Shown: positions 4,060 through 53,327 of the stretch, in pieces | Position numbering within the stretch: position 1 is the stretch's first letter | Layout of the letters: each line of letters begins with the position of its first letter | The notes under the pieces: model-generated | The model's input: only the letters and a program-made list of their open reading frames with translations | What the model was told of the DNA's origin: nothing | Databases searched by the model: none | Assembly (NCBI GenBank): GCA_045633025.1 | Contig: JAZQXS010000159.1 | Coordinates: 1-56,381, forward strand | Reading direction: 5' to 3' | Length of the DNA: 56,381 nucleotides | Source: Eubacteriales bacterium | Lineage (GTDB): Bacteria > Bacillota > Clostridia > Oscillospirales > CAG-272 | Translations under genes and position numbers: made by a program

Positions 4060-4065
4060 AAAAAT

Positions 4066-4446: not shown

Positions 4447-4827
4447 TTGTACAGAGATCGTTTGGAAGAAATCAGAAAAGAAAAAGGCTTATCTAACCGC
4501 AGGTGGTCTGAAGAAAGCGGCGTTTCGCTTGATACGATCGGACGTATTATTCACCCAGAAAATCCAGACAAGGATTCCCCGAGAGTAAACACCCTTGAAG
4601 ATTTATGCAAGCCGCTTGGCGTAGAACTTTGGGAAATCTTTTATATCGGCGAACACAGCTTTGTTGCGCTCCAAGCTGAACTCCTGGCTTTACGCGAAGA
4701 ACGAGACAAGCTGCTTGCGGAGAACGCCGTGCAAAGCGCAACGATCGATTCCCTAAAGGAAAAAGTGGATTCGCTCAAGGATCAGATCATCGACACCCAC
4801 AACTATTACATGAGGACGAGGAACTAA
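4447..4827 (+). CDS. HTH plus coiled-coil protein upstream of the integrase (possible excision or immunity regulator; start uncertain)
   Basis: In-frame TTG at 4447 after GAGGA. Contains RLEEIRKEKGLSNRRWSEESGVSLDTIGRI and a C-terminal heptad-like LQAELLALREERDKLLAEN. Confidence 0.55.
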   Translation: MYRDRLEEIRKEKGLSNRRWSEESGVSLDTIGRIIHPENPDKDSPRVNTLEDLCKPLGVELWEIFYIGEHSFVALQAELLALREERDKLLAENAVQSATIDSLKEKVDSLKDQIIDTHNYYMRTRN

Positions 4828-4833
4828 AGGAAG

Positions 4834-5961
4834 ATGGAACAATACTACATTTCCTCAACCAAATACAATATTCAAGAGCGCAGTACGAAGCTGAACGGCA
4901 AGGTCTATGACGTTGTGTTCTACCTGCAAACGCTCGATGGCGTGAAAAAGCAGAAGCGGCTATCCGGGTACAAGACCAAGACCGCCGCAAAAGAGGGATA
5001 TACCAGCTTCGTGACAAAGCATTGCACGCTCGCCAAGGTAGCGCCGAAACGAAACGAGGGAGCAACCGAGATTCCGACCGTCGCAGAGATGTTCCCACTC
5101 TACATTCAATCGTGCGCCAACCAAACCAAGGAATCCACCATTTACGACCGCCAAGGGATCTTCAAATCCATCATCCTTCCCATGCTCGGAAGCCTCCGCA
5201 TGACCGAGCTGACAAAGGAACGTCTGTATCAATGGCAAGATCAGCTATGGTCCATGAAAAGTGATCGGACAAAGGATTTCTATAGCTACGAGTACCTTTC
5301 CTCTATCCGAGGACACCTGAGCGCGTTCCTTTCATGGGCCGAGGCGCGCCATAGCTACGCCAATAATCTGAAGCTCGTCAAGAAGCCGAAGCCGCGCGTC
5401 CAAAAGACCGAAATGCAATTCTGGAGCCGCGAGGAGTTCGACCAATTCATAGAGGTGGTCGATGACCCACGTTACAGGATGATGTTCACCATGTCCTTCT
5501 TCACAGGAAGAAGAAAGGGAGAGATCCTTGCGCTCTCCCCCTCCGACATCAAAGCGGATTCCATTCTGTTCAATAAAACCTATTCCCGCAAGACCGTGGA
5601 CAGTTCCCCATACAAGATCACAACGTCGAAAAACGAAAAGATCGGATACACCCCCATCTGCCCCGCGCTGCGGAACGCCCTTGCCGGGTATGAGGGAGAA
5701 GCCCCGTTCTTTTTCGGCGGAGAAAACCCCATCCATGAAAATACCCTCACCCACGCCTTTGAAGCCTATATCAAAAAGGCGGGAGTCAAACGCATCCGCT
5801 ACCACGACCTGCGCCATTCCTTTGTATCTATCCTGCTGCACCACAACGCAAACTATATGGTCGTCGCAGATCTCATTGGAGACACCGTGGATCAAGTCAT
5901 AAAGACCTACGGACACCTCTACGAAACCGATAAAATAAAGGTTGTCGAGAGCATAATTTGA
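4834..5961 (+). CDS. int: Tyrosine integrase
   Basis: Catalytic signature GRRKGEILAL...RYHDLRHSF...TYGHLY. Confidence 0.9.
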   Translation: MEQYYISSTKYNIQERSTKLNGKVYDVVFYLQTLDGVKKQKRLSGYKTKTAAKEGYTSFVTKHCTLAKVAPKRNEGATEIPTVAEMFPLYIQSCANQTKESTIYDRQGIFKSIILPMLGSLRMTELTKERLYQWQDQLWSMKSDRTKDFYSYEYLSSIRGHLSAFLSWAEARHSYANNLKLVKKPKPRVQKTEMQFWSREEFDQFIEVVDDPRYRMMFTMSFFTGRRKGEILALSPSDIKADSILFNKTYSRKTVDSSPYKITTSKNEKIGYTPICPALRNALAGYEGEAPFFFGGENPIHENTLTHAFEAYIKKAGVKRIRYHDLRHSFVSILLHHNANYMVVADLIGDTVDQVIKTYGHLYETDKIKVVESII

Positions 5962-6194: not shown

Positions 6195-7331
6195 TTACAT
6201 CGCCTCTCGAATCACTTTAACACAATCAGCAAACGCATCTATCGCTCTATCGATCTCCCATTCCGTCGTGCATCTCGAAAGAGAGATTCTAACCGCGCTC
6301 AACGCTCTTTCATCCGACATTCCCATCGCCCGCAGTACACCGCTTGGCATTGTTGAGCCACTACAGCACGCAGATCCCGTGGAGCAGTATACCCCGTAAA
6401 GATGCGACAGCATCGAGACGAGACCATCCCCTTTGATGCCCTCCAGCGAGACATTCAGGATATGAGGAACCGATCCGTCTATGGCTCCGTTGAGAAGGAC
6501 GCCCCCCACCTTGTTCTCAAGACCAGCGAGCATCTGACCGCGCAGGATGCGGATCCTGTAATCGTCGTGCGCTTCCGAGAGAGCCACCGCCATTCCAATG
6601 ATCCCAGCTACGTTCTCCGTCCCAGCTCGCCTGTTGTTCTCCTGTGCTCCACCCACCAAGAGCGCGTGATAGCGCGTCAGGAGCGTTGGAAGCATCAAGC
6701 AACCGACTCCCTTGGGTCCATGAAATTTATGCGCGGAGAACGCTATGCTTGCCTCCTTCAGCTCGACACCCAGCGATATATGACCGACCGCCTGCGTAGC
6801 GTCGCAGTGATACGAGATCCCTTTCTCCTCGCAGATCTGTGCAACCTCTCGGAAAGGCTGTATCATACCCGTCTCGTTGTTGACTGCCATGAGGCAAACC
6901 ATACAAGTATCGCCCCGAATCTCACGCGCCACAGATTCGACGTCTACTACGCCATTCCGATCGGGATAGACTACCGACAGGGAAAATCCCCTCTCCTTCT
7001 TCAATCGTCTGCAACACTCCAATACAGACGGATGCTCAATGGCGGACACAACGATATGACGCCGACCCATCCGTTCTCCCTCCAATGCATAGTGCAAGAT
7101 CGCCGCATTATTCGCCTCGGTCGCCCCCGACGTAAACACCAATCTCGCAGGATCCACGCCCAGGCACTTGCCTACCATGCCCCGCGCCTTCTCAATCTCG
7201 CCCCGCGCCGCAATCCCCATGCCATGCCCCGAGGAAGCATTCCCGTAGCTTTCTCGCATGATCTCTACCATAGCCGCCATCGCCTTGTCGCTTACCCGCG
7301 TCGTCGCCGCATTGTCCATGTATATCCCCAT
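6195..7331 (-). CDS. nifS: Cysteine desulfurase (class V aminotransferase, NifS/IscS type)
   Basis: YMDNAATT N-terminus, PLP-lysine motif SAHKFHGPKGVG and active-site loop STGSACCSGS. GGAGG lies 6 nt before the ATG. Confidence 0.85.
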   Translation of the reverse strand: MGIYMDNAATTRVSDKAMAAMVEIMRESYGNASSGHGMGIAARGEIEKARGMVGKCLGVDPARLVFTSGATEANNAAILHYALEGERMGRRHIVVSAIEHPSVLECCRRLKKERGFSLSVVYPDRNGVVDVESVAREIRGDTCMVCLMAVNNETGMIQPFREVAQICEEKGISYHCDATQAVGHISLGVELKEASIAFSAHKFHGPKGVGCLMLPTLLTRYHALLVGGAQENNRRAGTENVAGIIGMAVALSEAHDDYRIRILRGQMLAGLENKVGGVLLNGAIDGSVPHILNVSLEGIKGDGLVSMLSHLYGVYCSTGSACCSGSTMPSGVLRAMGMSDERALSAVRISLSRCTTEWEIDRAIDAFADCVKVIREAM

Positions 7332-11524: not shown

Positions 11525-11992
11525 ATGAACATTTTTCTACCCTACCCCGAAAGCGCGGCGCGATCTGCGGCGGCTCTAGATGATCGGCGGCTTGTCAAGC
11601 AGATTTTGGAATGCAAGATCCTGCTTGACATTGCCACGCAGAACAGAACAGACGGCTATGCGCGTCACCCCGTCGCCGTACACTACCGAGGACAGACCGA
11701 TTTCCTGCGTTTCTACGGCTTGGAGTGTTGCCGCGAGTATTTGCACCGCTTTAACCGTCCGCACGCCTACGCGCCTTATTTCGCGGCTCTCCGTGCGGGC
11801 GAAAAGCAGCCCGATTATATCCCGTTTTACGCCGAGGGCAGCAGAACAGACCCGAAAAGCATCAGAACCACCGAGAACGTCGGCGATCTATTCCGCGCGA
11901 AGCTCTGCCGCAAGTGGCAGACCGACAGAACAGAACCCCGTTGGACGAACAGAACAGCACCCGAATTTTACAGAACAGCTCGTAAGTCCTGA
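11525..11992 (+). CDS. Pyrimidine-dimer DNA glycosylase / endonuclease V (DenV)-like protein
   Basis: MNIFLPY...LDDRRLVKQILECKILL and DYIPFYAEGS resemble T4 endonuclease V (LADQHLMAEYRE and DYIPHEAS). Similarity judged by eye. Confidence 0.5.
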   Translation: MNIFLPYPESAARSAAALDDRRLVKQILECKILLDIATQNRTDGYARHPVAVHYRGQTDFLRFYGLECCREYLHRFNRPHAYAPYFAALRAGEKQPDYIPFYAEGSRTDPKSIRTTENVGDLFRAKLCRKWQTDRTEPRWTNRTAPEFYRTARKS

Positions 11993-12023
11993 CCTACGGG
12001 CAGGCAGAGAAAAGGAGAACAGC

Positions 12024-12968
12024 ATGACACACGCAGAATACAAAAAGGCGGTCGGGCAGTATCTTTCTGCCCTTCCCTCACTCAATAAAAGCGAACGGAC
12101 ACAGGCGGCATATAAAGCCGTTTTAAGCGCATTTGATGCCTTTTCGGGAAAACACCTTGCCGAGGGCGAGAACGGCTCACAGATAGGCAAATTGGCTGTC
12201 GTGGCGTGGCGTTCCGCGCTTGCGGAGCAGAACAGCAACAACACGGTGCATCACCGACTCGTCTGCCTACACGCTTTTTTCGTTTGGGCGTGCCGCATGG
12301 GGCTTTGCAATGAAAACCCCGTGGACGTTGAGGATATACCCGATTTACAAGAGGTCGAATATGATCTTTTGACCTACGACGAGATCAAGACTATTTTGGT
12401 CGAAACGCCGAAAAAAGGCGTTCACGAAAAAAACACTTGCAGAAACCGCGCGATTGTGTTATTATTATGTACGACGGGACTGCGGAACAGTGAGCTTCGG
12501 CATCTGCGCTTGTCTGACCTTGACTTTGAGAACGGTACGATCTCCGTCCGACACGGCAAAGGAGACAAAAGCAGGACGGTCGCATTCCCTGCCCGCGCGA
12601 GAACGGCGGTGCAGGAATATCTTGCAAGCGGTGCGCGACCTGATTCGGTTGGTCCTGATGGTCTTTTGTTTGGGACAGGCGCGGACGAGAACGGGCACGG
12701 CAGAACAGCCGAGTGGCACGCGATCACGTCGCAGGGCTTGCTTGGCATTGTGAACCGTTACACAGAGAAGTGCTGCGGTCACGCGGTTAGCGTCCACGCG
12801 CTCCGTCACGCGGCGGCATCGCTTTGGGATCACCTCAACATTACGCCGAGCGAGATGCAACAGGCTCTCGGGCATTCGAGCATTACCACCACAATGGGGA
12901 TCTATCGGCACGTTTTGAAATCAGACAAGGCGGCAAAGAGCATCAATGCCGCTCTTGATTCAATGTAA
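12024..12968 (+). CDS. Second tyrosine recombinase (XerC/D-like)
   Basis: AAGGAG RBS. Catalytic motifs TGLRNSEL...VHALRHAAAS...MGIYRHV. Confidence 0.85.
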   Translation: MTHAEYKKAVGQYLSALPSLNKSERTQAAYKAVLSAFDAFSGKHLAEGENGSQIGKLAVVAWRSALAEQNSNNTVHHRLVCLHAFFVWACRMGLCNENPVDVEDIPDLQEVEYDLLTYDEIKTILVETPKKGVHEKNTCRNRAIVLLLCTTGLRNSELRHLRLSDLDFENGTISVRHGKGDKSRTVAFPARARTAVQEYLASGARPDSVGPDGLLFGTGADENGHGRTAEWHAITSQGLLGIVNRYTEKCCGHAVSVHALRHAAASLWDHLNITPSEMQQALGHSSITTTMGIYRHVLKSDKAAKSINAALDSM

Positions 12969-13440: not shown

Positions 13441-15096
13441 TTAGATGATGCAGAACACGGGGACGATACCGTTTGCACCGACGCCTTGGGTAGACGTAAG
13501 ATTTCCGTCCGTATAAACCACTCGCGCAGACGAAGCATTGTTTGTGTTGGCAGATCGCATTCGCCACGTGCGCGCGTTTCCGTTATAGCGTTTGATTCTA
13601 TCGGTTGCAGTCGTGTTTCCTTGCCAGTAGGTGAAAAATTGACCTTCTTGAACGCCGTTATTCAGTACGCCAGCCAACTCTGTATAGGAGATTAAAAACA
13701 CCTTGTCCTCGGTCGTATCGTACAGGGTATCGTCTACAATATCACACGTAGGTATCGCGCTCTTGAGAACGACCGTCCCGATAGAATTGACAAAAGATTT
13801 GTCCTTCCCGTAAAGGAATCCTGCTATATTGGAATTTACGGGCCAGGTATCAAAAACGGTTGCGGGCTTCCACCAGTTTGAGTATCCCGGTGACGCGGGC
13901 GCGGCATCCGAATTGAGCCATTGGCGAATCGCGGAGTCGCGCCATCTGTTTGTTCCGTAAGCGCATCTCTGTGTAAAATTATGCTTCCCGTCGTCTGTAA
14001 AATACTGTCTTTCGAACGATGTAAATACGCCAAGATCGGTAGATTGGGTGGTTCCGTCCCAAATAGTGACCGCGATGCCGGATGCTATAGCGTTTTTGTC
14101 AGCTCTGTAAATGGACACCCTACCATCTGTAATCTGCGAGGTATTATAAGACGGAGATTGAATGACCCCTACCGAATTGTGACGAATGCCGCCCCCCGCC
14201 GGAATGGGAATGGTCGTGGTGAACATATAGGTGGCATCCTGTCCCGTCGAGCCGTCGTAGGCACCGTGGTTCAAGGTAAAGCGGTAATTCCCAGCCGGGA
14301 GCTCGACGTCTGTATAATAAAGGAGCTGAGTACCCGAATAAGGGATGGTGCCGTAATACGGAACCTCGGAAGCCCCGCACACAAGGCAGTTTGACAGATT
14401 GACATTTTTCGGTGTCTCCTGATTGAAGCCGAGCACGTCATAGGAATCCGTCGTGGAGACCATCGTAATGGTCAAGGTGTCACCTACGGAAGGCATTCCC
14501 CCCGAAAGCGTGACACCGAGAAGGGATAGGCTGACCGCTTCCCCGTCCTCTCTGACCCATCCGTTTCCGCTATACGTAAATACATAAGTTCCCGCGATGG
14601 AGCCGTCGAGATAGGAGACGAACGCAAGCGCATCAAGAGACGCGGACAAAGAGGAATTGGAGGAGGTTATGGTGCAGGAATCCCCGTCAACCGTTTCAAG
14701 GGAAAGCTGCTGACCGACGGCGTAGTCCATCGGAGCCGTTCCGAATCGCACCGAGCGTTGAACCGCGTACCAAGACGCGTCATCAAGCGTGGATTGCTCA
14801 AAGTCCTGCGTCTCCCAAACAATCGCGTTTCGGAAGGAATTGTAAATGGTTGCCACCCAAACGGATTGTCCTTTTTTCATGTACGCCGCCTTGGAGGAAT
14901 ACGGAAGCGTCAGAACGGTACGGTCGGAAATAAGGCGCACGTCGCACACGTTCCCCTTCTCCGCGCTTGAATATGGCGGATTGACCACGACCCCCTTATA
15001 TACCCGAAAGCAATCCTTCGTTTGCTTACGGATAGTGTCGGCGGCTATCGTCTCGATGACCTTTCGGATCTGTTGGGTTAATGCAAGCGAACTCAT
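13441..15096 (-). CDS. Tail fibre / receptor-binding protein candidate. Its C-terminal domain resembles the DGR target scaffold.
   Basis: Last gene of the tail module. C-terminus TWRMRSANTNNASSARVVYTDGNLTSTQGVGANGIVPVFCII. Confidence 0.55.
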   Translation of the reverse strand: MSSLALTQQIRKVIETIAADTIRKQTKDCFRVYKGVVVNPPYSSAEKGNVCDVRLISDRTVLTLPYSSKAAYMKKGQSVWVATIYNSFRNAIVWETQDFEQSTLDDASWYAVQRSVRFGTAPMDYAVGQQLSLETVDGDSCTITSSNSSLSASLDALAFVSYLDGSIAGTYVFTYSGNGWVREDGEAVSLSLLGVTLSGGMPSVGDTLTITMVSTTDSYDVLGFNQETPKNVNLSNCLVCGASEVPYYGTIPYSGTQLLYYTDVELPAGNYRFTLNHGAYDGSTGQDATYMFTTTIPIPAGGGIRHNSVGVIQSPSYNTSQITDGRVSIYRADKNAIASGIAVTIWDGTTQSTDLGVFTSFERQYFTDDGKHNFTQRCAYGTNRWRDSAIRQWLNSDAAPASPGYSNWWKPATVFDTWPVNSNIAGFLYGKDKSFVNSIGTVVLKSAIPTCDIVDDTLYDTTEDKVFLISYTELAGVLNNGVQEGQFFTYWQGNTTATDRIKRYNGNARTWRMRSANTNNASSARVVYTDGNLTSTQGVGANGIVPVFCII

Positions 15097-41071: not shown

Positions 41072-41111
41072 CAAAAAAGACCAAGTGATCGTACATCCAA
41101 TCACTTGGTCT
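41072..41111 (-). terminator. Intrinsic terminator between the late promoter and the first late gene
   Basis: On the minus strand, AGACCAAGTGAT-loop-ATCACTTGGTCT followed by TTTTTTG. Confidence 0.65.
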
Positions 41112-41215
41112 TAATTCGGCTCACCACGGCATACCTACCCCATACCCATAAGAAGATCAAATGATTGGTGGCAAGATAGATGCCGAAATGAAAGAAATAT
41201 TTAGTTTTCGACTGT

Positions 41216-41244
41216 ATTATACCATCGCGTGATTGCTTTGTCAA
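41216..41244 (-). promoter_or_regulatory. Consensus promoter (late operon)
   Basis: On the minus strand, TTGACA (41244-41239), a 17-bp spacer ending in TG, then TATAAT (41221-41216). Confidence 0.65.
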
Positions 41245-42600: not shown

Positions 42601-43626
42601 TTACTCCTGTGCAATACTGTTAAAAAAGTCATCCGTCTCATTGAAATTGACGGGCTTCTTTTCTGTCGGTACGCTCTTTTTGCGCGCCTTTTTTTCGGGC
42701 TTTGCTTCGGGTTCAACTGCCGAGGATTTCTCGTCGCTTGACAAGTCCTCTCCTTCGCTTCCGTCAAAAAATTCGGCTTCGGTCGCTTCCTTTTCCACTG
42801 CGATAGCCTGTGCCAAGCCCTCGGACTCGATCTCAAATTCCTTTTCCTCGGCGGTTTTCATTTCGATGGACTTGGGCGCGTTCTTCAAAAGCATACGGAG
42901 AGCGAGATTGCAAGCCATCGTGTCGAAGTGCTGAATCCACGGCGTTTCGGCTTTCTTTTCCTCTTTCCAGCCGTTGAGTGCCTCACCACGCTGGATCTTC
43001 TCGTAGAGTGCAACGTCGAACGCCTTGCTGAAGCGTGCCGCGTGCGCGATCGCCTTGGACTTGGGAACGTAGATGCACTTGAAAAATCCGTTGCTTAATT
43101 CAAAGTACGCATAGTAGCCAATGATCGCCTTGGTCTCGCGCAGATCATCGTCCTCGATGAAGTCGATCACAGGCTTTCCCGTGCGCTTGTCCTTTCCCTT
43201 GTATTCGCCCTCTCGGATCTCGATTACGTCAAGATCCTTGTACTGTCCAGAGCGATATGCGAGCTGGAGTCTGCCGCCCGTCATGATCTGGAACTGTGCC
43301 TTGTAGGATTCATAATCCTGCAACTGCGAGTTCCACTTGGAGCCGTAAGGAACCATTGCGTACTCACCGAGCGCGGGAGACGGGGAAAGTTCCAAAGCCT
43401 CCCCCTGCAACGCCGAAGAAAGCACAGACGCGGGGTCACACTTCTGCAAGGTGGGATTGGCACTGACCGCCGACACCACAGCCGCGACGAAGCGATTGGC
43501 TCTCTTGGTATCTTTGAGCGTGGAATTGATGAGGTTCTGATACGCGGGCGTCTGAATCGCCTGACTAAAGGTCATTTTCTTGTTGCCGCCCTCCTGCTGG
43601 GGCGCGAGACTGTTTTTTACTGCCAT
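42601..43626 (-). CDS. recT: RecT-family single-strand annealing protein
   Basis: N-terminal pattern QNLINSTLKDTKRANRFVAAVVSAVSANPTLQKCDPASVLSSALQGEALELSP and the context with a YqaJ exonuclease and SSB. Confidence 0.75.
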   Translation of the reverse strand: MAVKNSLAPQQEGGNKKMTFSQAIQTPAYQNLINSTLKDTKRANRFVAAVVSAVSANPTLQKCDPASVLSSALQGEALELSPSPALGEYAMVPYGSKWNSQLQDYESYKAQFQIMTGGRLQLAYRSGQYKDLDVIEIREGEYKGKDKRTGKPVIDFIEDDDLRETKAIIGYYAYFELSNGFFKCIYVPKSKAIAHAARFSKAFDVALYEKIQRGEALNGWKEEKKAETPWIQHFDTMACNLALRMLLKNAPKSIEMKTAEEKEFEIESEGLAQAIAVEKEATEAEFFDGSEGEDLSSDEKSSAVEPEAKPEKKARKKSVPTEKKPVNFNETDDFFNSIAQE

Positions 43627-43638
43627 TTTGCTTCTCCT

Positions 43639-44571
43639 TTACGCTTTTCCATATTTGATTTTATTTTCCACCAAAAACTCTTTGAGCTTTTGGAGTTGCG
43701 ACTTGGTGCATTCCACGCGGAATGCGATGGAAACGGTTTCTTCGTCCTCGTCCGTAGATGGCTCTAAAATCGTTTCTACGGGCTTTTGAGGCTCGGGTGT
43801 CATATCTGCCCGCGTTTCGGATTTTGGCTTCTCCTGCAAAGCCTGCGACTGTCTCTGTGCCTCGTTTACTTGCTTTTGGATCTTCAAACGCTCGTTGTAA
43901 GAGATTGCCGCCGTAAGATCGTGGCACTTGGCATAGTAGTCGAGGAGTGACACCTCAAATTCACTGCCGAGCATCCGAATGGCGCGAACCTCATCCTTGA
44001 CGCGATCTGCGATCTTCTTAAGCTCGTCCACAATCTTATCGCGCTTGGCGGTTCGGTTCGTCCATTTCGGGTCAAACACACTCTCCCACGGACGATAGCT
44101 CAGGTGTTCCTCTCCGATCTCGGTCTCATAGACCAAGCGGAGCGAATTTTCCTTATTGCGCTTTTCGGTTTCCTCAAAGGATTTCACCTGCGCGGCAATC
44201 GGCTCGATCACGGCAGTAAATTCCTCAACGAGCTTTTTCACGTCAACCTCAAAGGCTTTCAGCGGCTTGTCCCAGTTCTTTTTCACGTCCTTGCGCTGGG
44301 AGTCGATGAGCTCCATCTGCTTGCGGAGATTTGCCAGCGTAGATTTTGCATCGTCCACGGTGTCCTCTGTCACAACGAGGTTTCGATATTTGTCAAGTGC
44401 ATCGGAGAGCTGACGGCGGACCTCGGCGGCATTGGAAAGGATCGCTGCGGGGAGTGCCGTGATGTACCCATCGTCCACCATGAAGGCGACCTCGCGTACA
44501 AAGTGCTGGTCGATGTTCTGCGACTCCTCCAGCGTTTGGAGCGCGGCGGTGATGTCAAGTTCGGTGTTCAT
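43639..44571 (-). CDS. DUF1351-like protein
   Basis: Pattern KNWDKPLKAFEVDVKKL and position next to recT, as in many siphophages. Confidence 0.55.
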   Translation of the reverse strand: MNTELDITAALQTLEESQNIDQHFVREVAFMVDDGYITALPAAILSNAAEVRRQLSDALDKYRNLVVTEDTVDDAKSTLANLRKQMELIDSQRKDVKKNWDKPLKAFEVDVKKLVEEFTAVIEPIAAQVKSFEETEKRNKENSLRLVYETEIGEEHLSYRPWESVFDPKWTNRTAKRDKIVDELKKIADRVKDEVRAIRMLGSEFEVSLLDYYAKCHDLTAAISYNERLKIQKQVNEAQRQSQALQEKPKSETRADMTPEPQKPVETILEPSTDEDEETVSIAFRVECTKSQLQKLKEFLVENKIKYGKA

Positions 44572-44957: not shown

Positions 44958-45764
44958 TTATGTAAAAACTTTCATACCGATTTGCTCACCATCAAAATTG
45001 AGCATTTTTTCTTTTGCATCAGTATAGAATTTTCTACTTACCTCAAATCCGTATGCCTTTCGGTTTATCTCGTGTGCCGCGCGAAGCGTGCTTGCACTCC
45101 CTGCGCAGGGATCGATCACAACGTCACCCTCATCGGTGAAAATCTCGATCAGGCGTTTCAAGACGTTCACGGGCTTTTGCGTGGGATGAATTTTCGGAAT
45201 CTCTTTTCCGTCGCGTTTCCACTCAATCCAATCGAAGATCATTCTTCCTGTTCCGCGAATGGGCTTTCCGTCCTCTCCGATCTGTCTGCCATTGTTGAAT
45301 TTTGGGAGTTTGTCTCGGTAAAGCACAACTGCAAACTCGGTAGCACCTACGATTTTCATATTTGCTTTCAGAACCTGAGCCGAATAGTTTTTGATGAAGA
45401 AAAGCGGATAGGAGTTCATAAAGCCGTATTTTTTTCCGTACTCAATGACGGTTGGGATCTGCTCAAACGCGCAGAATACGATCATTGCAGGAGCTTTTCC
45501 TTTCTCTTTCGGCTCCTTGATCAAGAGCCTACTGCAAAAGTGCATATACTCGGCAATCTTGAAATCGCCATCCCCATTGAAGAAAGCCGCCTTTGCGTGC
45601 TTGCTTTCTCCGTTTTTGTTATCGCCTCCCTCGTACCACATCGGATTGCTACCGTAAGCATTTACTCCAATGTTGTACGGAATATCCGCAATCACAAGCT
45701 GGGCTTTCTGAATGCCGTACCGTTTGTAGTTTTGAAAATTATCGTGATAAAGTTCACAGATCAT
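44958..45764 (-). CDS. DNA N6-adenine/N4-cytosine methyltransferase (beta class)
   Basis: DIPYN (DPPY-type motif IV) near the N-terminus and VIDPCAGSAST (motif I) near the C-terminus. Confidence 0.8.
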   Translation of the reverse strand: MICELYHDNFQNYKRYGIQKAQLVIADIPYNIGVNAYGSNPMWYEGGDNKNGESKHAKAAFFNGDGDFKIAEYMHFCSRLLIKEPKEKGKAPAMIVFCAFEQIPTVIEYGKKYGFMNSYPLFFIKNYSAQVLKANMKIVGATEFAVVLYRDKLPKFNNGRQIGEDGKPIRGTGRMIFDWIEWKRDGKEIPKIHPTQKPVNVLKRLIEIFTDEGDVVIDPCAGSASTLRAAHEINRKAYGFEVSRKFYTDAKEKMLNFDGEQIGMKVFT

Positions 45765-45787
45765 TTTTTGCTTCTTCCTTTCTGTTT

Positions 45788-46456
45788 TCAAATCCGAATC
45801 ACAACAGGCGGTTGTCTGTCGGACTCGATGTACCTCCAAAATTTTGTTACTTCGTCCTCGACGTATGACATGTCCGCGCGAACCTCGTCGGCTTCGATGT
45901 TGTATTCTCTGGTTTCGGCGGTGCTGTCGGGGAATCGCAACTCTGCCGACAACACCAAGAAATCAAATTGCGTGATGTTGAGCTGATCTACCACCTGGCA
46001 AAAGTAGTTATTCGGGATTCTTCCCTCCCATTCCTCCAACGCGCGTTTGGATTGAATGAGCGCGGTTTTGCACTCCCAAACGCCGCGCTTTCCATCGGAG
46101 ATCCGAACCAACTCGCCGTCGAGGGTGCAGGTCATGTACGGCTTTTCTCCGTGGTGGTAAACGAGGAACGGCTTGTACTCCACCTTGTAGTCACGCCGAT
46201 GCTTCAAAGCAAACAACGCTCGAAGATGCTCCTCGGCTTCCGTCCCGTAGGAAACGCGCTCGTCCTCGGAAATATCGTCTGGAGACTTGCGCCCCGTCTT
46301 TTCCTGCCAAAGATCCAGCGGTGACTTGTAGGACGCTTGTCCCAAGATGATCGCAACCTCCGATGCGCCGATGCTCTTGGAGCGTCCGGCAAGCCAATCC
46401 TCACGGTCCTTGTACTGAACCGTCGTCGGCGGTTTCCTGTGAAACGGTCTTACCAC
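45788..46456 (-). CDS. YqaJ-type (lambda Exo-like) recombination exonuclease; GTG start inferred
   Basis: WLAGRSKSIGASEVAIILG...LDGEL...ECKT motifs. The GTG at 46456 overlaps the upstream stop. Confidence 0.7.
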   Translation of the reverse strand: MVRPFHRKPPTTVQYKDREDWLAGRSKSIGASEVAIILGQASYKSPLDLWQEKTGRKSPDDISEDERVSYGTEAEEHLRALFALKHRRDYKVEYKPFLVYHHGEKPYMTCTLDGELVRISDGKRGVWECKTALIQSKRALEEWEGRIPNNYFCQVVDQLNITQFDFLVLSAELRFPDSTAETREYNIEADEVRADMSYVEDEVTKFWRYIESDRQPPVVIRI

Positions 46457-46644
46457 GGCTCCTCCCGCTTCTTTTCGATCTCGATCGCCGCGCCGACAAA
46501 GCAGAATAGCAATCGGAACGTAATTCCAAAGAGGAACGCGTCCTCGGTGCTTTGGTAGGATGCCTCCGCCGAGAGCTTTCTTCTCCCTCGGCTCCCGTGC
46601 TTTCCGCACATCAGATGAAGGCACCCGAGCTTCTTATGCTTCAA
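46450..46644 (-). CDS. Small hypothetical protein (64 aa, TTG start)
   Basis: GGGAGGG RBS 6 nt before the TTG. Fills the gap between ssb and the exonuclease gene. Confidence 0.3.
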   Translation of the reverse strand: MKHKKLGCLHLMCGKHGSRGRRKLSAEASYQSTEDAFLFGITFRLLFCFVGAAIEIEKKREEPW

Positions 46645-46658
46645 AATATTCCCTCCCT

Positions 46659-47090
46659 TCAGAACGGCAGATCGTCTCCGCCGCTTTGGTTGAATTGCGG
46701 CACGTTGCTTTTTGCAAACGCGGGAGCATCGTAGGTGGTGCTGTCCGCGTTCGCGCGTGCCCCACTGTAATCCTTCAGGGGAACGATCTCGTCAACGACG
46801 ATCCGCGTTACGTATTTTTGATTTTCGTCTCGGTCGCGGTAATCGTCGATATGAAGTTCGCCCGAGATCATCAAGCGATCTCCCTTTCGGAAATAGCGGC
46901 AAAGATAATCCGCGTGATGCCGCATAGCGGTAAAATTGATAAAATCGACATCCTGCTGCCCATCCTTGGCATACTTGCGCTTCACCGCGATCCGCGTCTC
47001 ACAGATCTGGGTTCCGTTCATCGTCATCTTCAATTCGGGGTCGTATACCAGATTCCCCAGCAGCAAGACCTTATTGTACGTGTTCGCCAC
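46659..47090 (-). CDS. ssb: Single-stranded DNA-binding protein
   Basis: NKVLLLGNLVYDPEL OB-fold N-terminus and C-terminal DDLPF. Confidence 0.9.
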   Translation of the reverse strand: MANTYNKVLLLGNLVYDPELKMTMNGTQICETRIAVKRKYAKDGQQDVDFINFTAMRHHADYLCRYFRKGDRLMISGELHIDDYRDRDENQKYVTRIVVDEIVPLKDYSGARANADSTTYDAPAFAKSNVPQFNQSGGDDLPF

Positions 47091-47105: not shown

Positions 47106-47294
47106 TCATTGCACGTAAAATCCGATCTCTACCATGCAGTTGTCGCAGATGACCGTATCGTCGTCAATCTTGTACGCGTAGTCACCCACACGTATCTTGT
47201 ACCTGCAACGCTTGCAAACGTAAAGAACATCGAGCTTCTCAATATAGTTCGGACAAGCCGATGGGCAGAAATCCTGCCTGCATTGGTCACACAT
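47106..47294 (-). CDS. Cys-rich zinc-ribbon protein just downstream of the DGR RT (start uncertain)
   Basis: CDQC...CKRC...CDNC motifs. Confidence 0.4.
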   Translation of the reverse strand: MCDQCRQDFCPSACPNYIEKLDVLYVCKRCRYKIRVGDYAYKIDDDTVICDNCMVEIGFYVQ

Positions 47295-47296
47295 CC

Positions 47297-48331
47297 TTAT
47301 GTTCCTTCCCTTAATAATTTTTCGATCATACTCTTCATGGATCGAGCAAGACTTTCGCAATCGCCCTGCGAAAGGTGATTTTGGTAGGACTGAAATGAGG
47401 TTTTTAGTACCTCCTCGGACCTTTTACCTTTCGACACAAGCAATGCCATTCTTCTGTATTTTCTTTGAGCGTTTCGCTTGTTTTCGTTTCGGACTTTTCG
47501 CACAATCTTGCCGTCGCTCGTCAGATAGGTGTGAAAACCAAGATAGTCCAGCCCATTTTTGATCGGTGCGATCTGCGTTTTTCCATTCAGCGTAAGATCA
47601 AGCGTTTTCAAATACTCCGTGATGATTTCAAGGCAGTTTTTTAGATACTCTTTGCTTGGATGCAGTAAATAAAAATCATCCATATACCGCCCGTAAAATT
47701 CAATCCCGAGTTCTCTTACAATCAGCTTATCCAATCCATCCAAATAAAGGAGCGCAAGACCTTGATTGATCTGATTGCCAAGCGGAAGCCCTTTTCCATT
47801 GGTACTATCTATAAACAAATGGCATAGCCAGCATATATCGGAATCGGAGCCAAAATAATAATCCACCGTATCCTTCATCTGCTCATGGGAAATGTTATAG
47901 AAAAACTTGGATATATCGCATTTGAGAACGTAACCATTCCGTTCATACCTTTGGTAGAATCTTTCCATGTGAAAAGATAGCCGATCAAGTCCGAATAGCG
48001 TCCCCTTGCCGATCTGTCCAGCGCAGTTATCGTACAGAAAAATGCGTTGGAGTTTCGGTAGAAGTACGTTGTCACATAGACTGTGCTGCACGACCTTATC
48101 CTTGAATGAGGTCGTCTGAATCAACCGTTCCTTTGGCTCGTAAACCTTAAACTCATGATATGGAGATATTTGATAGGTTTTGCTCTTTAGCTGATCGATA
48201 AGAATATTGATTCCCTCAATCGGCATCATTCCAAATTTTGCCGAGCTTTTCTTATACCCCTTCCCACATTTGGATTTGCGGTAGGCTCGGTACATATTTT
48301 CAAAGTCGATCACTTTCTCAAAATCGGTCAT
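47297..48331 (-). CDS. DGR reverse transcriptase
   Basis: YMDD catalytic box and LGNQINQ in place of the group II/retron motif. A TR lies immediately upstream and avd is adjacent. The ATG is at 48331; the longer ORF extension merely reads through the TR. Confidence 0.9.
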   Translation of the reverse strand: MTDFEKVIDFENMYRAYRKSKCGKGYKKSSAKFGMMPIEGINILIDQLKSKTYQISPYHEFKVYEPKERLIQTTSFKDKVVQHSLCDNVLLPKLQRIFLYDNCAGQIGKGTLFGLDRLSFHMERFYQRYERNGYVLKCDISKFFYNISHEQMKDTVDYYFGSDSDICWLCHLFIDSTNGKGLPLGNQINQGLALLYLDGLDKLIVRELGIEFYGRYMDDFYLLHPSKEYLKNCLEIITEYLKTLDLTLNGKTQIAPIKNGLDYLGFHTYLTSDGKIVRKVRNENKRNAQRKYRRMALLVSKGKRSEEVLKTSFQSYQNHLSQGDCESLARSMKSMIEKLLREGT

Positions 48332-48438
48332 GCAGTACAGTCCTTTTTGTTTATCTTTTTCCAAAGAAAGGTTGCGTGTTCTTTCGATGTGGTGCGCTGA
48401 TTTCGGATGTTTCCTACTCTGTCTGGCTTTCCACCGAT

Positions 48439-48505
48439 ACGGGCGAACCCCCATGTTGTCGTTGTTGTAGTTGTCGTTGTTGATGTTGCCGCGCGGGGAA
48501 ACGCA
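48439..48505 (-). repeat. DGR template repeat (TR, 67 nt)
   Basis: Minus strand reads TGCGTTTCCCCGCGCGGC-AACATCAACAACGACAACTACAACAACGACAACATG-GGGGTTCGCCCGT. It is adenine-rich, and both flanks are identical to the VRs. Confidence 0.9.
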
Positions 48506-48535: not shown

Positions 48536-48904
48536 TTATTTCCTTTCGGACGTTCTCCATGCAATCGAAAGGAATTTCACATCGGAAACCATTTTTGTCC
48601 AGTAAGCCGCAGACTCCGGTGAAAGGAGCTGCAAGTTCATAGAAAGTTCAATGTAAAAAATAAGTTGATTGCATTTCGTGATGGCTTCTGTAATCATTTC
48701 GCAACGTCTGGCTTTTTGCGTTTGATTGTTCACAGAATTTGCTTCCAACAGGGTATCGTAAATATCAAGGCTTTTTTTCTGCATTTGATCTACCAACGAG
48801 TGCCTATACTTTTTAGGGTATCGATTGCAGTTTGACGTCAACTTAAACGTATGTACTGCAAGTTCCTTTGCCTTGATAATTACCCTCAAATCATTATCTG
48901 CCAT
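48536..48904 (-). CDS. avd: Avd accessory variability determinant (four-helix-bundle protein)
   Basis: 122 aa and helical. Lies between the target gene and the TR, which is the canonical DGR position. Confidence 0.75.
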   Translation of the reverse strand: MADNDLRVIIKAKELAVHTFKLTSNCNRYPKKYRHSLVDQMQKKSLDIYDTLLEANSVNNQTQKARRCEMITEAITKCNQLIFYIELSMNLQLLSPESAAYWTKMVSDVKFLSIAWRTSERK

Positions 48905-48906
48905 TT

Positions 48907-49434
48907 TTACTCGTCGGAAGATTCAAAGATAGCAGAGGAAAAGATCCAAAACGGGCGAACCCCCATGAAGTCGATGAAGTAGTAGACGAAGTTGACGTAG
49001 CCGCGCGGGGAAACGCAAGCAATCCAATCATCATCGGTATATTCGCTCGTTTCCCATGGAGTAGAAAGCCAAAACCAATCCGTTAAGGGATACTTTGCAA
49101 AAATGCTTCGGTTGCTTCTGTAAAAATCGAATGTAGGGAGGCTGACCTTCGATCTCAATACACCGTGCTTCCGAGAACCATCCACAGAGATCAAATCGGT
49201 TTCAAATTCCAAGACATTCTCTGCACCGATCTCGCGCTCAATTTCGGGCAGATATTCTCCCAACACCCTTTTGAGAATGTCGCTTTTGGAAAGGTCATTG
49301 GTTGGTCCGAACCGAGACTTAAACAGAAAATCCTTTTGCACCGCAGCAATTCCGCCCTGGCACTCACCGAATCGGATAAATTCGTACTTTCCGATTTTGA
49401 ACGTTTCTCCGATTTTTGCTTTGATTTTTTCCAT
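48907..49434 (-). CDS. DGR variable protein 1 (175 aa)
   Basis: AAGGAG RBS. C-terminus ...WFWLSTPWETSEYTDDDWIACVSPRGYVNFVYYFIDFMGVRPFWIF contains VR1. Confidence 0.85.
   Translation of the reverse strand: MEKIKAKIGETFKIGKYEFIRFGECQGGIAAVQKDFLFKSRFGPTNDLSKSDILKRVLGEYLPEIEREIGAENVLEFETDLISVDGSRKHGVLRSKVSLPTFDFYRSNRSIFAKYPLTDWFWLSTPWETSEYTDDDWIACVSPRGYVNFVYYFIDFMGVRPFWIFSSAIFESSDE
48951..49017 (-). repeat. DGR variable repeat VR1 (67 nt)
   Basis: Same length as the TR. All 11 differences fall at TR adenines. Confidence 0.9.
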
Positions 49435-49457
49435 TTTGCTTCTCCTTTTTAGTTTTT

Positions 49458-50075
49458 TCAAGATTCAAAGATATTGGATTTCAAGATAAGAAACGGGCGA
49501 ACCCCCAAGTTGCCGTCGACGTAGCCGTAGTCGAAGCAGCCGCGCGGGGAAACGCACTTGACAAGCGTTGAACTTTCGTGCCTCGGAGTGCTCCACGGTG
49601 TCACCAACCACCAGTATTTATACAGCCGATCCAAATCAAGAATGTCAACGTAACGGCGATAAAGATCGGTCGTAAGAAGCGAGCACTTTTCGCTGATCTT
49701 TCCATAGTCGCGCAACCCATCATCGGAAGTGAGGTCCACCGTATGTTCTACGATATTTTCCTCTCCAACGATTGCGGCAATCTCCGCAGCAAACTCACGG
49801 CAGACCTTCTGTGCGTTGCTTCCTCGGAAATCGTTGTTGGCTCCGAACTTGACGTTCTCTTTGTAAAGAGATTTCAAGAGCAGCGAGACCGTATCCCCGG
49901 ATTTCTCAAGAACGAGAAATTCGTATTTGCCGATACGTGCGATCGTCTCCCCCCTTTCGTTCTGCTTGGTGTAAAAACGGTCCTTCACGCCAAGTGCCTT
50001 TTTGATCTCGGAGAGCTTGTCCTCCTCGATCTCGATCTTTTTGCCATTCAGGCAGATGTAGTTTTTGGTTTTCAT
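49458..50075 (-). CDS. DGR variable protein 2 (205 aa), a paralogue of variable protein 1
   Basis: GGAGG RBS and ATGA coupling. C-terminus ...YWWLVTPWSTPRHESSTLVKCVSPRGCFDYGYVDGNLGVRPFLIL contains VR2. Confidence 0.85.
   Translation of the reverse strand: MKTKNYICLNGKKIEIEEDKLSEIKKALGVKDRFYTKQNERGETIARIGKYEFLVLEKSGDTVSLLLKSLYKENVKFGANNDFRGSNAQKVCREFAAEIAAIVGEENIVEHTVDLTSDDGLRDYGKISEKCSLLTTDLYRRYVDILDLDRLYKYWWLVTPWSTPRHESSTLVKCVSPRGCFDYGYVDGNLGVRPFLILKSNIFES
49493..49556 (-). repeat. DGR variable repeat VR2 (64 nt, one codon shorter than the TR)
   Basis: Flanks are identical to the TR. After a 3-nt gap, every difference falls at a TR adenine. Confidence 0.85.
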
Positions 50076-50356
50076 GATTTTTCCTCCGTGTATTTCTTTT
50101 TGAGTTCGGCATAATCTTTTTCGGTCAAGACGATAATGTTTCGGCATCCGTCAAAAAGGAAATCTGCATAATTGTTCTCAATCTCCTCAAAAATCTCCCT
50201 CGCAACCTCGCTCTTTGGTGCGACATCGGCGGCGGGCAATTTACTGATTTCGTCTGCGGATGCAAAATTTCCGTTGCAAAAAGATAGCGGATATTTTGCT
50301 ACGCAATTCTCTCGCAAATGCTTTATTGCTTTATCCGCATCAATATATCGTGCCAT
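50072..50356 (-). CDS. Hypothetical protein (94 aa)
   Basis: ORF translationally coupled on both sides. Confidence 0.5.
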   Translation of the reverse strand: MARYIDADKAIKHLRENCVAKYPLSFCNGNFASADEISKLPAADVAPKSEVAREIFEEIENNYADFLFDGCRNIIVLTEKDYAELKKKYTEEKS

Positions 50357-50537: not shown

Positions 50538-50870
50538 TCAACACTCATAAGCAACCGCAACAAATGTATTAAGGTCACCAACTCTAATAAACATTGTTCC
50601 GTAGTAATCATCTCCGCAATATCCTGTGTGCTGATTAACAAAATACGGGATTTCTTCATCCATACATCTTCCGTCATCACTTAACAATTCGTCTTTATCG
50701 GTGAAAAGTTTCCCGTTTTCCATTTTGCAATTATAATAAATGCCGACAACGCCCCACGATGATAAATCTTCAAAAAACTCACTTTTTCCAAGTGTTTCTT
50801 TGATGTTTTCTAATTCCTTCATAAGGTCACCCATCTTTTTTAGCAATCTTAATGTTTTGTTTGTTGTCAT
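50538..50870 (-). CDS. Hypothetical protein (110 aa)
   Basis: ATGA coupling with the upstream gene. Confidence 0.5.
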   Translation of the reverse strand: MTTNKTLRLLKKMGDLMKELENIKETLGKSEFFEDLSSWGVVGIYYNCKMENGKLFTDKDELLSDDGRCMDEEIPYFVNQHTGYCGDDYYGTMFIRVGDLNTFVAVAYEC

Positions 50871-51205
50871 TCCGCTCCTCCTTTCATCTTCGGTGGTTCG
50901 GGGAACGGCATCCAATGGGTAGCTTCTACCATCTCATCATCGTTCAACCACTCAAAATGACTATGAAAATAATACGCTTCTCCTACGTTCCCGTACTTAT
51001 CACATACGATTATAAATTTACGATTATCTGGCAACCTCTCCTCAACGCTGATCCACTCCCCCTCACTCCGCTTGCTATACCCCATCTTGCAAAGATGCTT
51101 TGCGGTCTTTTCCCTGTCGAGGATGAAGTGTCCCGATTCCTCGTCAAAGTCCCAATGCTCCGCTTTTTGCAGGTCGGTTGCCATCTGCTTAATCTTCTTT
51201 TCCAT
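50867..51205 (-). CDS. DUF551-like protein
   Basis: WISVEERLPD...THWMPFPEPP pattern. Confidence 0.6.
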   Translation of the reverse strand: MEKKIKQMATDLQKAEHWDFDEESGHFILDREKTAKHLCKMGYSKRSEGEWISVEERLPDNRKFIIVCDKYGNVGEAYYFHSHFEWLNDDEMVEATHWMPFPEPPKMKGGAE

Positions 51206-51296: not shown

Positions 51297-53327
51297 TCAC
51301 CCCACCATCACGTCGTGAAGCTCCGCCATGTCGGATATGCGCCTTTTGCAGCATTCCGGCAGATTTGCTCGCACTAATGCCTCTGCGACCGCCGGGCATA
51401 CAGCATTTCCGCATCTTGCGACTTGGTCTGCTCTTGTGATCGGATTTCCGTTCACGTCCTTGTCAATGATGTAATCGTGCGGGAAGCCCATCGCATCGTA
51501 AAGCTCGCGCGGTGTCAGCATCCGCAGACCAATGTCCGAAATGAAATACCAGATCCCGCGAATATTCAAAAGAAGGATCTCATCGTCCGCGAGATTATAG
51601 CCGCAATACTGATTGAGCATTTTTCGGATCTCGCTCCAATATCCAAGGTCTGTTTTACCGTCCCACTTGACAATCTTCGTGCGAACGTCGGCAAACTGTC
51701 CATCCCGCGCGGTCACGGTCATCAGAGGATCGGACGGATGCTGACCCTTGTCCTTACCCTTGAAATGTGCAAGGTGTGACAGGACAATCGAATTATGATC
51801 TACAGCCGTAACGGTAGGTGTCGGATCGTTTACATCAGAGCCATCAACTCCCGTGAAAAATTTGGACAGGAAGGCAGTAGTCACACCCTCACGCTCCATC
51901 GTCGTGATGGTTGCAAGAGGTTCCTCGGTAGAGTGATAATGCCCCTCGCCACTAAAATACTGCGTCAACCAAGCGGCGCCAAGTGCCTCTCGGTCCTTTG
52001 CTGTAATGGTCTGCGCGGGATCACGAATATCAATTCCGTCTCTTGCGTTTCCGTAATACTCGGAAAGGAATACAGAGGAAAGCCCATAGCGATTCGCCGC
52101 GTCAACCGTCTGGATTGGCTCGTCCAGCTTCTGTCCTCTGTGTTCCTTTGCGCTCTGCTCGGTGTGATACTGGATCAGACTCGGCGCAACAAGGATGTTT
52201 CTTCCGCCTGTTGTGACCGTCGGCACAGGCTCGTCCATTCCGTGCGGTGCGTTCCCTGCGTTGTTACAGATCGCATAGGGCGTCACCAATGGTTCAACCA
52301 CCATCTGCGCCCCAACCCCTGTCACAGTGTTTACGGGATCATTCATGTCAGTTCCACTCGCGTTTGAGTGGTTGTGCATATGATATGGCGTCATAAGAGG
52401 ATCGCAAGCGTACTGTTTCGTGCTGGATACTACCGTGGAAAGTGGCTCCTTCATATCATGCACGCGCGGAGCTTGTCCTTTGTTTTCACCATAGCCAACA
52501 GGAACAATAAACGGCTCCGCGCTCTTTATAACGAACTTGTCAAGCCCCCGTGCAATTCTTCGGAGAGTGTTTTCCTTGAGAGGACGCATAGCATTGATAC
52601 CGTACTGCTCCTTAATCTCCTTCTTGCTCGCAAAGATCGAAGGACACGGAAGGGAGAAGTCGATCACTTCCGCAGCGGATCTCCATGGCTTCAACTTTCC
52701 ACTCTTGACCTCCTCACTGTCTCTCGGCGCGTGTGTGCGTTCAGGGAAAACGATGGGTCTGCCATCGCAACGGGCGACAAGAAGGAATCGTGTGCGAATG
52801 GTTGGTGCTCCGAGATCAGCCGCACAGATCTTTCGGGTCTCCACCTCGTACCCGAGATCTTCCAACTGCGAGATAAACTTTCTGTAGGTCTGCCCCGCCT
52901 TTTTCTTAACTGGTTTCCCCTTACGCACGGGTCCCCATGTCGTAAACTCGGGAACGTTCTCCAGCATGATTACATCGGGACGAACCTCAGCCGCCCATTT
53001 GAGGGCAACCCATGCAAGCCCACGAATTTTCTTGTCTACAAGCGCGGAACCCTTGGCACGGGAGAAGTGCTTGCAATCGGGCGAGAACCACGCGAGGCGA
53101 ACGTGGCGACCACGCACGGCAGTCTTGGGATCGACCTGCCAAACATCTTCTATGTAATGTTCCGTAAACGGATGGTTCCGTTGGTGCATCATAATTGCGG
53201 CTTCGTTGTGGTTGATAGCCACGTCCACAGGATGACCCGTCGCCATCTCTATGCCCGTAGACGCTCCGCCACCCCCGGCAAAGCTATCCACAAAGCAATC
53301 GTCAAATATTCCGTATTGATAACTCAT
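51297..53327 (-). CDS. dcm: DNA (cytosine-5) methyltransferase with an expanded repeat region
   Basis: Motifs FAGGGG (I), SPDCKHFS (IV), ENV (VI), RMLTPREL (IX) and GNAVCP (X), plus eight [DE]PxxT[VI]x repeats. Confidence 0.9.
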   Translation of the reverse strand: MSYQYGIFDDCFVDSFAGGGGASTGIEMATGHPVDVAINHNEAAIMMHQRNHPFTEHYIEDVWQVDPKTAVRGRHVRLAWFSPDCKHFSRAKGSALVDKKIRGLAWVALKWAAEVRPDVIMLENVPEFTTWGPVRKGKPVKKKAGQTYRKFISQLEDLGYEVETRKICAADLGAPTIRTRFLLVARCDGRPIVFPERTHAPRDSEEVKSGKLKPWRSAAEVIDFSLPCPSIFASKKEIKEQYGINAMRPLKENTLRRIARGLDKFVIKSAEPFIVPVGYGENKGQAPRVHDMKEPLSTVVSSTKQYACDPLMTPYHMHNHSNASGTDMNDPVNTVTGVGAQMVVEPLVTPYAICNNAGNAPHGMDEPVPTVTTGGRNILVAPSLIQYHTEQSAKEHRGQKLDEPIQTVDAANRYGLSSVFLSEYYGNARDGIDIRDPAQTITAKDREALGAAWLTQYFSGEGHYHSTEEPLATITTMEREGVTTAFLSKFFTGVDGSDVNDPTPTVTAVDHNSIVLSHLAHFKGKDKGQHPSDPLMTVTARDGQFADVRTKIVKWDGKTDLGYWSEIRKMLNQYCGYNLADDEILLLNIRGIWYFISDIGLRMLTPRELYDAMGFPHDYIIDKDVNGNPITRADQVARCGNAVCPAVAEALVRANLPECCKRRISDMAELHDVMVG

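Follow-up and report, generated by a model that had tools for sequence, protein, structure and literature searches.

Analysis of the 56,381-nucleotide contig JAZQXS010000159.1 (positions 1 to 56,381; hereafter the window), which is the whole of contig C159 of the metagenome-assembled genome (MAG) GCA_045633025.1 of an Eubacteriales bacterium (85% complete, 2.57 Mb), revealed a prophage with a complete diversity-generating retroelement (DGR) in its early operon. The targets of this DGR are two small paralogous proteins, predicted to be soluble and encoded in tandem beside genes of DNA metabolism; the tail fibre of the phage is not among them. We consider it highly probable that the anatomy of the DGR is as described below. 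The broader view that this early-operon element is dedicated to its two tandem targets, and that these act as soluble binders inside the infected cell, has in our judgment an even chance of being right. The phage itself, which fills most of the window, is best explained as a temperate siphophage of an Oscillospiraceae-type gut bacterium.

All parts of the DGR lie on the minus strand, in the order target gene 2 (49458..50075; 205 aa), target gene 1 (48907..49434; 175 aa), the gene of the accessory protein Avd (48536..48904; 122 aa), the template repeat (TR; 48439..48504; 66 nt) and the gene of the reverse transcriptase (RT; 47297..48331; 344 aa). The RT matches phrog_1423 (E=1.6e-106) as well as RVT_1 (E=6e-13) and contains a YMDD box, while Avd was identified through phrog_3206, annotated as 'Avd protein of DGR' (E=2e-19), together with weak Pfam matches to 23S_rRNA_IVP and bAvd. 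The TR consists of a 16-nt fixed 5' flank, a 36-nt AAC-rich core containing 19 adenines and a 14-nt GC-rich 3' flank. Its variable counterparts (variable repeats, VRs) are found towards the 3' ends of the target genes, 30-45 nt before the stop codons. VR1 (48951..49016, minus strand) has fixed flanks at 49001-49016 and 48951-48964 around a variable core at 48965-49000 (36 nt, 12 codons); VR2 (49493..49555, minus strand) has fixed flanks at 49540-49555 and 49493-49506 around a core at 49507-49539 (33 nt, 11 codons). A second DGR-type RT was not found in the 85%-complete MAG.

The assignment of the two targets follows from the differences between TR and VRs. VR1 has the same length as the TR and differs from it at 11 positions, all of which (11/11) fall on TR adenines. 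VR2 is one codon (3 nt) shorter; aligned with one in-frame 3-nt gap it shows 11-12 differences, again exclusively on TR adenines. The fixed flanks are identical in all copies and each occurs three times in the 56-kb window (TR, VR1 and VR2), with 0.4-0.8 occurrences expected by chance. An adenine-masked TR pattern matched only the TR and VR1, and neither this search nor the one with the fixed flanks detected any VR in the window beyond VR1 and VR2. The GC-rich 14-mer is common to TR, VR1 and VR2, and the sequence beyond it diverges between the TR and the VRs, which may reflect the distinction between an initiation of mutagenic homing (IMH) site and IMH*. Altogether, the adenine pattern and the lack of any other VR or RT bear out the original prediction that the early operon holds the targets of the DGR, two small soluble paralogues, and that the tail fibre is spared.

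Adenine-only differences between TR and VRs also characterise about 45 related cassettes in which the TR was found by pattern, with 0-1 exceptions. In about 10 of these 45, the lengths of one VR and of its TR are 3 or 6 nt apart with the adenine-only pattern kept; the target 2 family has VRs of 11 and of 12 codons in about equal numbers. Besides the VR2 core of the window (49507-49539), such length differences were recorded at loci L039, L084, L085, L086, L089, L092, L095, L102 and L105, which suggests that frequent in-frame slippage on the AAC-repeat template may explain the changes in VR length. The idea that the missing codon marks VR2 as a dead target was dropped as a strong argument, because these frequencies make it a recurrent state and poor evidence of death. 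Across orthologues, 12 hypervariable residues are enclosed by invariant CVSPRG and GVRPF motifs, which had been described earlier for the two targets. Between 99.4 and 99.9% of these variable residues are amino acids that NNC codons can encode, the outcome to be expected when AAC codons are mutagenised.

Between TR and RT lies a candidate DGR spacer RNA (48310..48431, minus strand), which matches the Rfam family RT-2 (RF03077) with 25.8 bits (E=0.0026) and thus below the gathering score of 40. Matches to RT-2, likewise sub-threshold (25-34 bits), occupy the same TR-RT position in 6 of 8 related cassettes (L007:3778-3899, L059:2222-2335, L047:5247-5375, L056:2146-2255, L076:1078-1187 and L029:5555-5659). 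In BPP-1, the DGR spacer RNA primes cDNA synthesis (PMC6182149). Folded alone, the TR-spacer RNA of the window was no more stable than shuffled sequences (z=+2.15). With a covariance model built for this cassette class, its DGR spacer RNA could probably be defined.

The tail fibre (13441..15096, minus strand; 551 aa) ends in a DUF6273 domain that comprises its C-terminal 175 residues (Pfam E=1.1e-18), which agrees with the earlier description of a related-looking fibre end without a match to the TR. Neither the flank search nor the adenine-masked TR search found TR-like sequence in the fibre DNA, and a repeat of the fibre 3' end was not found elsewhere in the MAG. The DUF6273 domain of the fibre belongs to a different subfamily, nearer to the tentaclin of the gut myophage nd12 and to FN3 proteins of Bacillus jumbo phages. 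Pairwise BLASTP of the fibre C-terminus against target 2 was not significant, the relationship between the two being visible only with Pfam and PHROG profiles. Because the window holds no other VR and the MAG no other RT, the DGR of this assembly does not target the tail fibre.

Both targets belong to phrog_9958 (target 2, E=6.3e-28; target 1, E=7.5e-23) and are paralogues with 40% identity (BLASTP, E=4e-33). Target 2 matches DUF6273 in Pfam with E=1.3e-3, below the curated cut-off; target 1, a bare DUF6273-type domain, has no Pfam match to DUF6273, and many target orthologues carry PF19789. AlphaFold2 models were built with alignments of 84-86 sequences. For target 1 a single compact alpha/beta domain was predicted (predicted local distance difference test (pLDDT) 94.5, predicted template modelling score 0.89), in which VR1 forms a surface beta-hairpin (strands 147-151 and 157-159). 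The model of target 2 (pLDDT 83.1) combines a conserved N-terminal hairpin-helix of about 40 aa with a DUF6273/C-type-lectin-like domain. The best match among solved structures was 9qa6, the DUF6273 N-terminal domain of the Thomasclavelia ramosa IgA peptidase, with template modelling (TM) scores of 0.57-0.64, and C-type lectins (MBP-C, CD23, CD94/NKG2A) were weak fold matches. Among the predicted viral structures in BFVD, DUF6273 proteins of gut phage MAGs scored best (TM 0.6-0.76), followed at lower scores by DUF1566 proteins.

In the structural comparison with Mtd and TvpA that the original prediction proposed, neither protein was among the fold matches of the target models. In neither model did we find an N-terminal virion-attachment domain of the Mtd/TvpA type, target 1 consisting of the lectin-like domain alone, and both targets lack a beta-prism or beta-sandwich of the Mtd type. 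A sequence-profile search of the PDB with the target 1 alignment returned nothing at E<=1, and PADLOC gave no match for the targets, Avd or the small neighbours. The earlier statement that the targets have no signal peptide or transmembrane segment stands: crude Kyte-Doolittle hydropathy (19-residue maxima of 0.85 and 1.14) showed no transmembrane segment or N-terminal hydrophobic stretch, and only 1 of 240 homologues exceeded a value of 1.6. By this measure both targets are predicted to be soluble, with the proviso that cytoplasmic and virion proteins cannot be told apart by the lack of a signal peptide.

The genomic position of the cassette is the second element of the argument. It lies inside the early region, which extends from 41.2 kb to the contig end, and is separated by 6-9 kb from the late promoter and terminator downstream of it. 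These two signals mark where the late operon begins (41077..41244, minus strand): a consensus promoter at 41216-41244 (12/12 match, extended -10) and a terminator at 41077-41112 (15-bp stem, then a T run); from here the operon runs for about 27 kb on the minus strand, through the tape measure and tail proteins, to the tail fibre. The early genes, all on the minus strand, begin with a C5 cytosine methylase (51297-53327), a DUF551 protein (50867-51205) and small open reading frames (ORFs), of which a 94-aa ORF (50072-50356) directly precedes target 2. Downstream of the cassette come SSB (46659-47090), a YqaJ exonuclease (45788-46624), an N6/N4 methylase (44958-45839), DUF1351 (43639-44571) and RecT (42601-43626), with Pfam E values from 1e-22 to 1e-33 for the genes from SSB to RecT. 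With the two methylases, SSB, YqaJ and RecT adjoining, the targets do sit among replication, recombination and anti-restriction genes, as had been proposed, and the gene junctions are tight. The ATG of target 2 overlaps the stop codon of the 94-aa ORF (ATGA), the 23-nt gap between targets 2 and 1 contains the AAGGAG ribosome-binding site of target 1, and the ATG of Avd follows the target 1 stop after 2 nt. We found nothing resembling a promoter or terminator that would set the cassette apart from its early neighbours. An additional 84-aa Cys-rich ORF (47106-47360, minus strand) with CxxC motifs, zinc-ribbon-like in appearance and without a family match, overlaps the final ~60 nt of the RT gene and precedes SSB.

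This arrangement is not restricted to the window. Clustered at 90% identity, the target 2 family amounts to more than 1,200 clusters and the target 1 family to more than 430; their sources are MAGs of Clostridia, Oscillospiraceae and Ruminococcaceae as well as gut metagenomes. We surveyed 80 IMG/VR loci by tblastn with marker proteins and found two tandem target copies in 68 of them, three in one and a single copy in 11. Where more than 2.5 kb of downstream sequence was present, an adjacent RT was detected in 59/67 and an adjacent Avd in 61/67 loci. SSB, YqaJ, RecT, a methylase or a replisome organiser was encoded on the same strand within 10 kb in 47 of the 80 loci. A late marker was located near the cassette in none of the 80 loci, the markers being the late proteins of this phage itself, with limited sensitivity for distant structural genes. 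In nine near-complete relatives (CheckV 89-100%, several with terminal repeats), DUF6273 occurs only in the small cassette proteins, and therefore the DGR there serves these proteins alone. The possibility that the small targets need a large DUF6273 partner, such as the fibre, was rejected, as these nine relatives have no other DUF6273 gene. The early-operon two-target cassette is thus a widespread layout, recurring in dozens of related phage contigs with early neighbours and no tested late marker adjacent.

Individual loci illustrate the common order and its variants. For example, locus L004 encodes an integrase, a cI-like repressor, a cro-like protein and small ORFs, followed by proteins of 203 and 178 aa, Avd, RT, DUF1064, YqaJ, HNH, a replisome organiser, SSB and a methylase; its TR lies between Avd and RT, and both VRs differ from it at adenines only. 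At L010, YqaJ, DUF1351, RecT, a 214-aa protein and a 171-aa protein are found together. L008 is 63% identical to the window and syntenic with it (methylase, a single 209-aa copy, SSB, YqaJ, methylase, DUF1351 and RecT), and the 16.6 kb examined contain no Avd, TR or RT. The single copy at L008:8001-8630 joins a target 2-like N-terminus to a target 1-like C-terminal tail (..IFSSSIFDSCEE). Avd, TR and RT are all missing from the 8 kb to its left and the 8 kb to its right, yet between this copy and close relatives (P0035-P0040) the VR varies freely. Judged from the sequence, a remote DGR or a recent loss of the cassette by recombination between the paralogues is likely at this locus. Further variants are three tandem target copies ahead of Avd and RT at L069:10001-11700 and two Avd copies at L084:11171-12246.

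Relatives of the targets are also present in described phages. A tblastn search of the GenBank phages with target 2 matched FP_Brigit, Lelie, nd4 and nd12 (nd4, E=6e-9). In these four phages the RT lies 10-41 kb from the small gene, and the small gene represents a remote VR because its 3' end matches the distant TR with adenine-only differences. In FP_Brigit (MG711465.1), for instance, the small protein is AUV56625.1 (L001:3948-4559), and its VR (L011:1183-1262, about 45411-45490) corresponds to a TR about 41 kb away, from which it differs at TR adenines; in the original FP_Brigit description a Hoc-like protein is the only DGR target named (PMC5883640). The neighbours of the small gene are again early in character, namely helix-turn-helix (HTH) proteins on one side and exonuclease, RecT and a replisome organiser on the other in Brigit; a methyltransferase, a transcriptional regulator and a replication initiator in Lelie; and a polymerase exonuclease subunit, a methyltransferase, Gam, Erf and SSB in nd4. 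Overall, at least five phage lineages carry the family in early or DNA-metabolism regions.

Some of these proteins have been described before. The proteins nd4_tgt2 and nd12_tgt2 were reported as second DGR targets of the gut myophages nd4 and nd12, with a proposed Mtd-like receptor-binding role (Baykov et al. 2023, PMC10743442). Like the window targets, nd4_tgt2 belongs to phrog_9958 (E=7e-81), has a single DUF6273/C-lec-like domain with the C-terminal VR on a surface beta-hairpin and is encoded among DNA-metabolism genes. In nd4 and nd12, however, about 10 kb separate the TR from the small protein, which is a remote second target; there the DGR sits by the structural genes and the first target is a large tentaclin, whereas in the window the cassette resides in the early operon with two tandem small targets, no large target and a shorter TR (66 nt). 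For the Faecalibacterium phages Lelie and CP11, the function of the small target was called 'not entirely clear' (PMC11792537), and the product of the core 'VR2 gene' of Toutatisvirus, which has 17.5 kb between itself and the TR, was considered 'likely' to be a receptor-binding protein (bioRxiv 10.1101/2024.10.15.618418). Lelie orf58 resembles the window targets in its membership of phrog_9958 (E=1.4e-86), its tblastn match to target 2, its DUF6273 domain with a C-terminal VR and its methyltransferase, regulator and replication-initiator neighbours. It differs in being a single copy and a remote target, 15-17 kb from the TR, with a Hoc-like/tentaclin protein as the other target. The small target of Lelie and Toutatisvirus is a core gene that persists even without a DGR, and the Lelie VRs were reported to show no activity in culture (PMC11792537; bioRxiv 10.1101/2024.10.15.618418).

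The Bordetella phage BPP-1, with Mtd and a bAvd-TR-Brt cassette, shares with the window the order target, Avd, TR and RT, the adenine-specific TR-to-VR differences and a VR at the 3' end of a lectin-type fold. In contrast to the single-domain targets of 175-205 aa in the early operon, Mtd of BPP-1 has 381 aa, attaches to the tail fibre through beta-prism and beta-sandwich domains, and its gene ends the tail module. Quimbyvirus has a non-structural DGR target beside several methyltransferases, for which a role in phage-host conflict was proposed (Benler et al. 2021, PMC8008677), so that the functional idea of the original prediction had already been put forward in print. By gene context and description it is comparable to the window, as its target lies outside the structural module next to DNA methyltransferases, but its host belongs to the Bacteroidetes, the target is remote and the same DGR also diversifies a tail-module protein. 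In the Roseburia phage Shimadzu, the non-tail VR2 was diversified and, unlike the tail VR1, its alleles were not fixed in infectious isolates (Cornuault et al., 10.1101/575076). With orf43/44 (VR2), Shimadzu thus has a non-tail DGR target like the window, and one whose diversification was shown experimentally; unlike in the window, it is a remote target, in a Lagaffe-like myophage, and tblastn detected no similarity to the window targets at E<=1e-3. The protein class, the two-target DGR and the idea of a non-structural target are therefore already published (2021, 2023, 2024). What sets the window apart is a DGR that resides in the early operon and serves tandem small targets only; early-operon placement is not commented on in PMC10743442, PMC11792537 or bioRxiv 10.1101/2024.10.15.618418.

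Following general DGR biology, RT and Avd would copy the TR-spacer RNA into cDNA, with misincorporation opposite the template adenines, and this cDNA would replace the 3' VR of each target gene. As a result, 12 (or 11) NNC-type codons would be randomised and the variation displayed on a surface beta-hairpin of a small single-domain DUF6273/C-type-lectin-like protein. Position and architecture suggest that both targets would be made together with the early genes and would serve as soluble hypervariable binders inside the infected cell, most plausibly directed against variable host or competitor factors. That the targets are intracellular and non-virion, and not the primary receptor-binding tip of the phage tail, we hold tentatively, at slightly less than even confidence. 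In favour of this are the conserved early-gene placement, the absence of a late marker and the lack of a virion-attachment module in target 1; by analogy, the non-fixation of Shimadzu VR2 and the role proposed for Quimbyvirus may lend it further support.

Several points weigh against such an intracellular role. Gene position is circumstantial evidence of timing or location, and virion proteins likewise lack signal peptides. Since the late markers of the survey were the proteins of this phage, distant structural genes near the cassettes of relatives could have escaped detection. In the literature, members of the family are interpreted as Mtd-like receptor binders (PMC10743442; bioRxiv 2024.10.15.618418). 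One and the same TR serves both the small target and a virion-type tentaclin/Hoc-like protein in Brigit, Lelie and nd4, which could mean a shared class of extracellular ligands. Activity of the DGR in this phage is no more than predicted, the hypervariable VR of the orthologues being indirect evidence, and VR2 is one codon shorter than the TR. Finally, the contig stems from a metagenome assembly, in which each VR is one path through a possibly mixed population.

These points lead to a serious alternative, which we nevertheless regard as rather unlikely: the targets could be virion-associated receptor-binding or adhesion modules of the Mtd or tentaclin kind, encoded outside the late operon and docking on the tail tip, fibre or capsid, where they would widen binding to hosts or mucus. 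This is the published reading of the same family (PMC10743442; bioRxiv 2024.10.15.618418), phage DGRs classically serve adsorption, and the targets have their fold family in common with the fibre C-terminus and the tentaclins. The small proteins are the sole DGR targets in the nine near-complete relatives, and host range is what one might expect a phage to use its DGR for; moreover, the conserved N-terminal extension of target 2 (about 40 aa) could be a docking element. On the other hand, target 1 has no attachment domain and neither protein an Mtd-type beta-prism or beta-sandwich, the cassette is located upstream of the late promoter and terminator, and in at least five phage lineages the family occupies early or DNA-metabolism regions, never beside the tested late markers. 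If Shimadzu is a valid analogue, the lack of VR2 fixation under infection selection would argue in the same direction.

Another possible explanation, which appears improbable to us, is that the targets are prophage-borne hypervariable sensors or blockers of other phages or mobile elements, expressed early or at a low level in the lysogen for superinfection exclusion or defence. The proximity to the immunity switch in some relatives (int, cI and cro, then the cassette), the methylase-rich neighbourhood and the link of cellular DGR targets to conflict and signalling systems (cited in PMC8008677) would fit such a function. However, no effector domain or partner gene is conserved alongside the targets, PADLOC gave no match, and the genes are co-oriented and tightly packed in a lytic early operon, where no promoter of their own was detected. 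Still more improbable is the release of the targets at lysis as soluble lectin-like factors that bind host glycans, mucus or immunoglobulin as decoys or helpers for the progeny. The closest solved structure does belong to a secreted gut-bacterial IgA peptidase (9qa6, TM 0.57-0.64), and there are the weak C-type-lectin fold matches, but early rather than late placement has no obvious rationale here, a secretion signal is absent and nothing supports this reading directly. That the cassette is decaying in this prophage, with VR2 or the whole DGR no longer homed and the variation historical, could be suspected from VR2 being 3 nt shorter than the TR and from related loci that keep targets without an adjacent RT (e.g. 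L008), but is hardly credible given that every ORF is intact, the three copies have the same TR flanks, an RT-2-like spacer RNA is still present and about 10/45 otherwise intact cassettes show such a VR/TR length difference.

At its left end, the window contains host genes, such as an aminotransferase (6195-7331), as well as two integrases (4834-5961 and 11580-12968). In the region 2524-5961, a 511-aa protein with a C-terminal Mrr-type restriction endonuclease domain and ZorD-like and PDC-S02 matches in PADLOC adjoins an HTH protein and a second tyrosine integrase. This region resembles a small mobile or defence island distinct from the prophage, on whose left side it lies.

Host range is the textbook purpose of phage DGRs, and here many gut phages devote their DGR exclusively to small soluble proteins encoded beside replication, recombination and anti-restriction genes. 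Phages would accordingly seem to employ targeted hypermutation for purposes besides adsorption as well. In a more specific form, which we consider quite doubtful at this point, the targets would constitute an antibody-like intracellular repertoire, in which the DGR repeatedly randomises a lectin-fold hairpin and some of the progeny thereby neutralise the variable host-defence or competitor-phage proteins that they encounter, and well over a hundred gut phages would possess a diversification system dedicated to counter-defence. The cassette is compact, with two targets of about 0.5 kb, abundant, and present in relatives among the cultivable Faecalibacterium phages.

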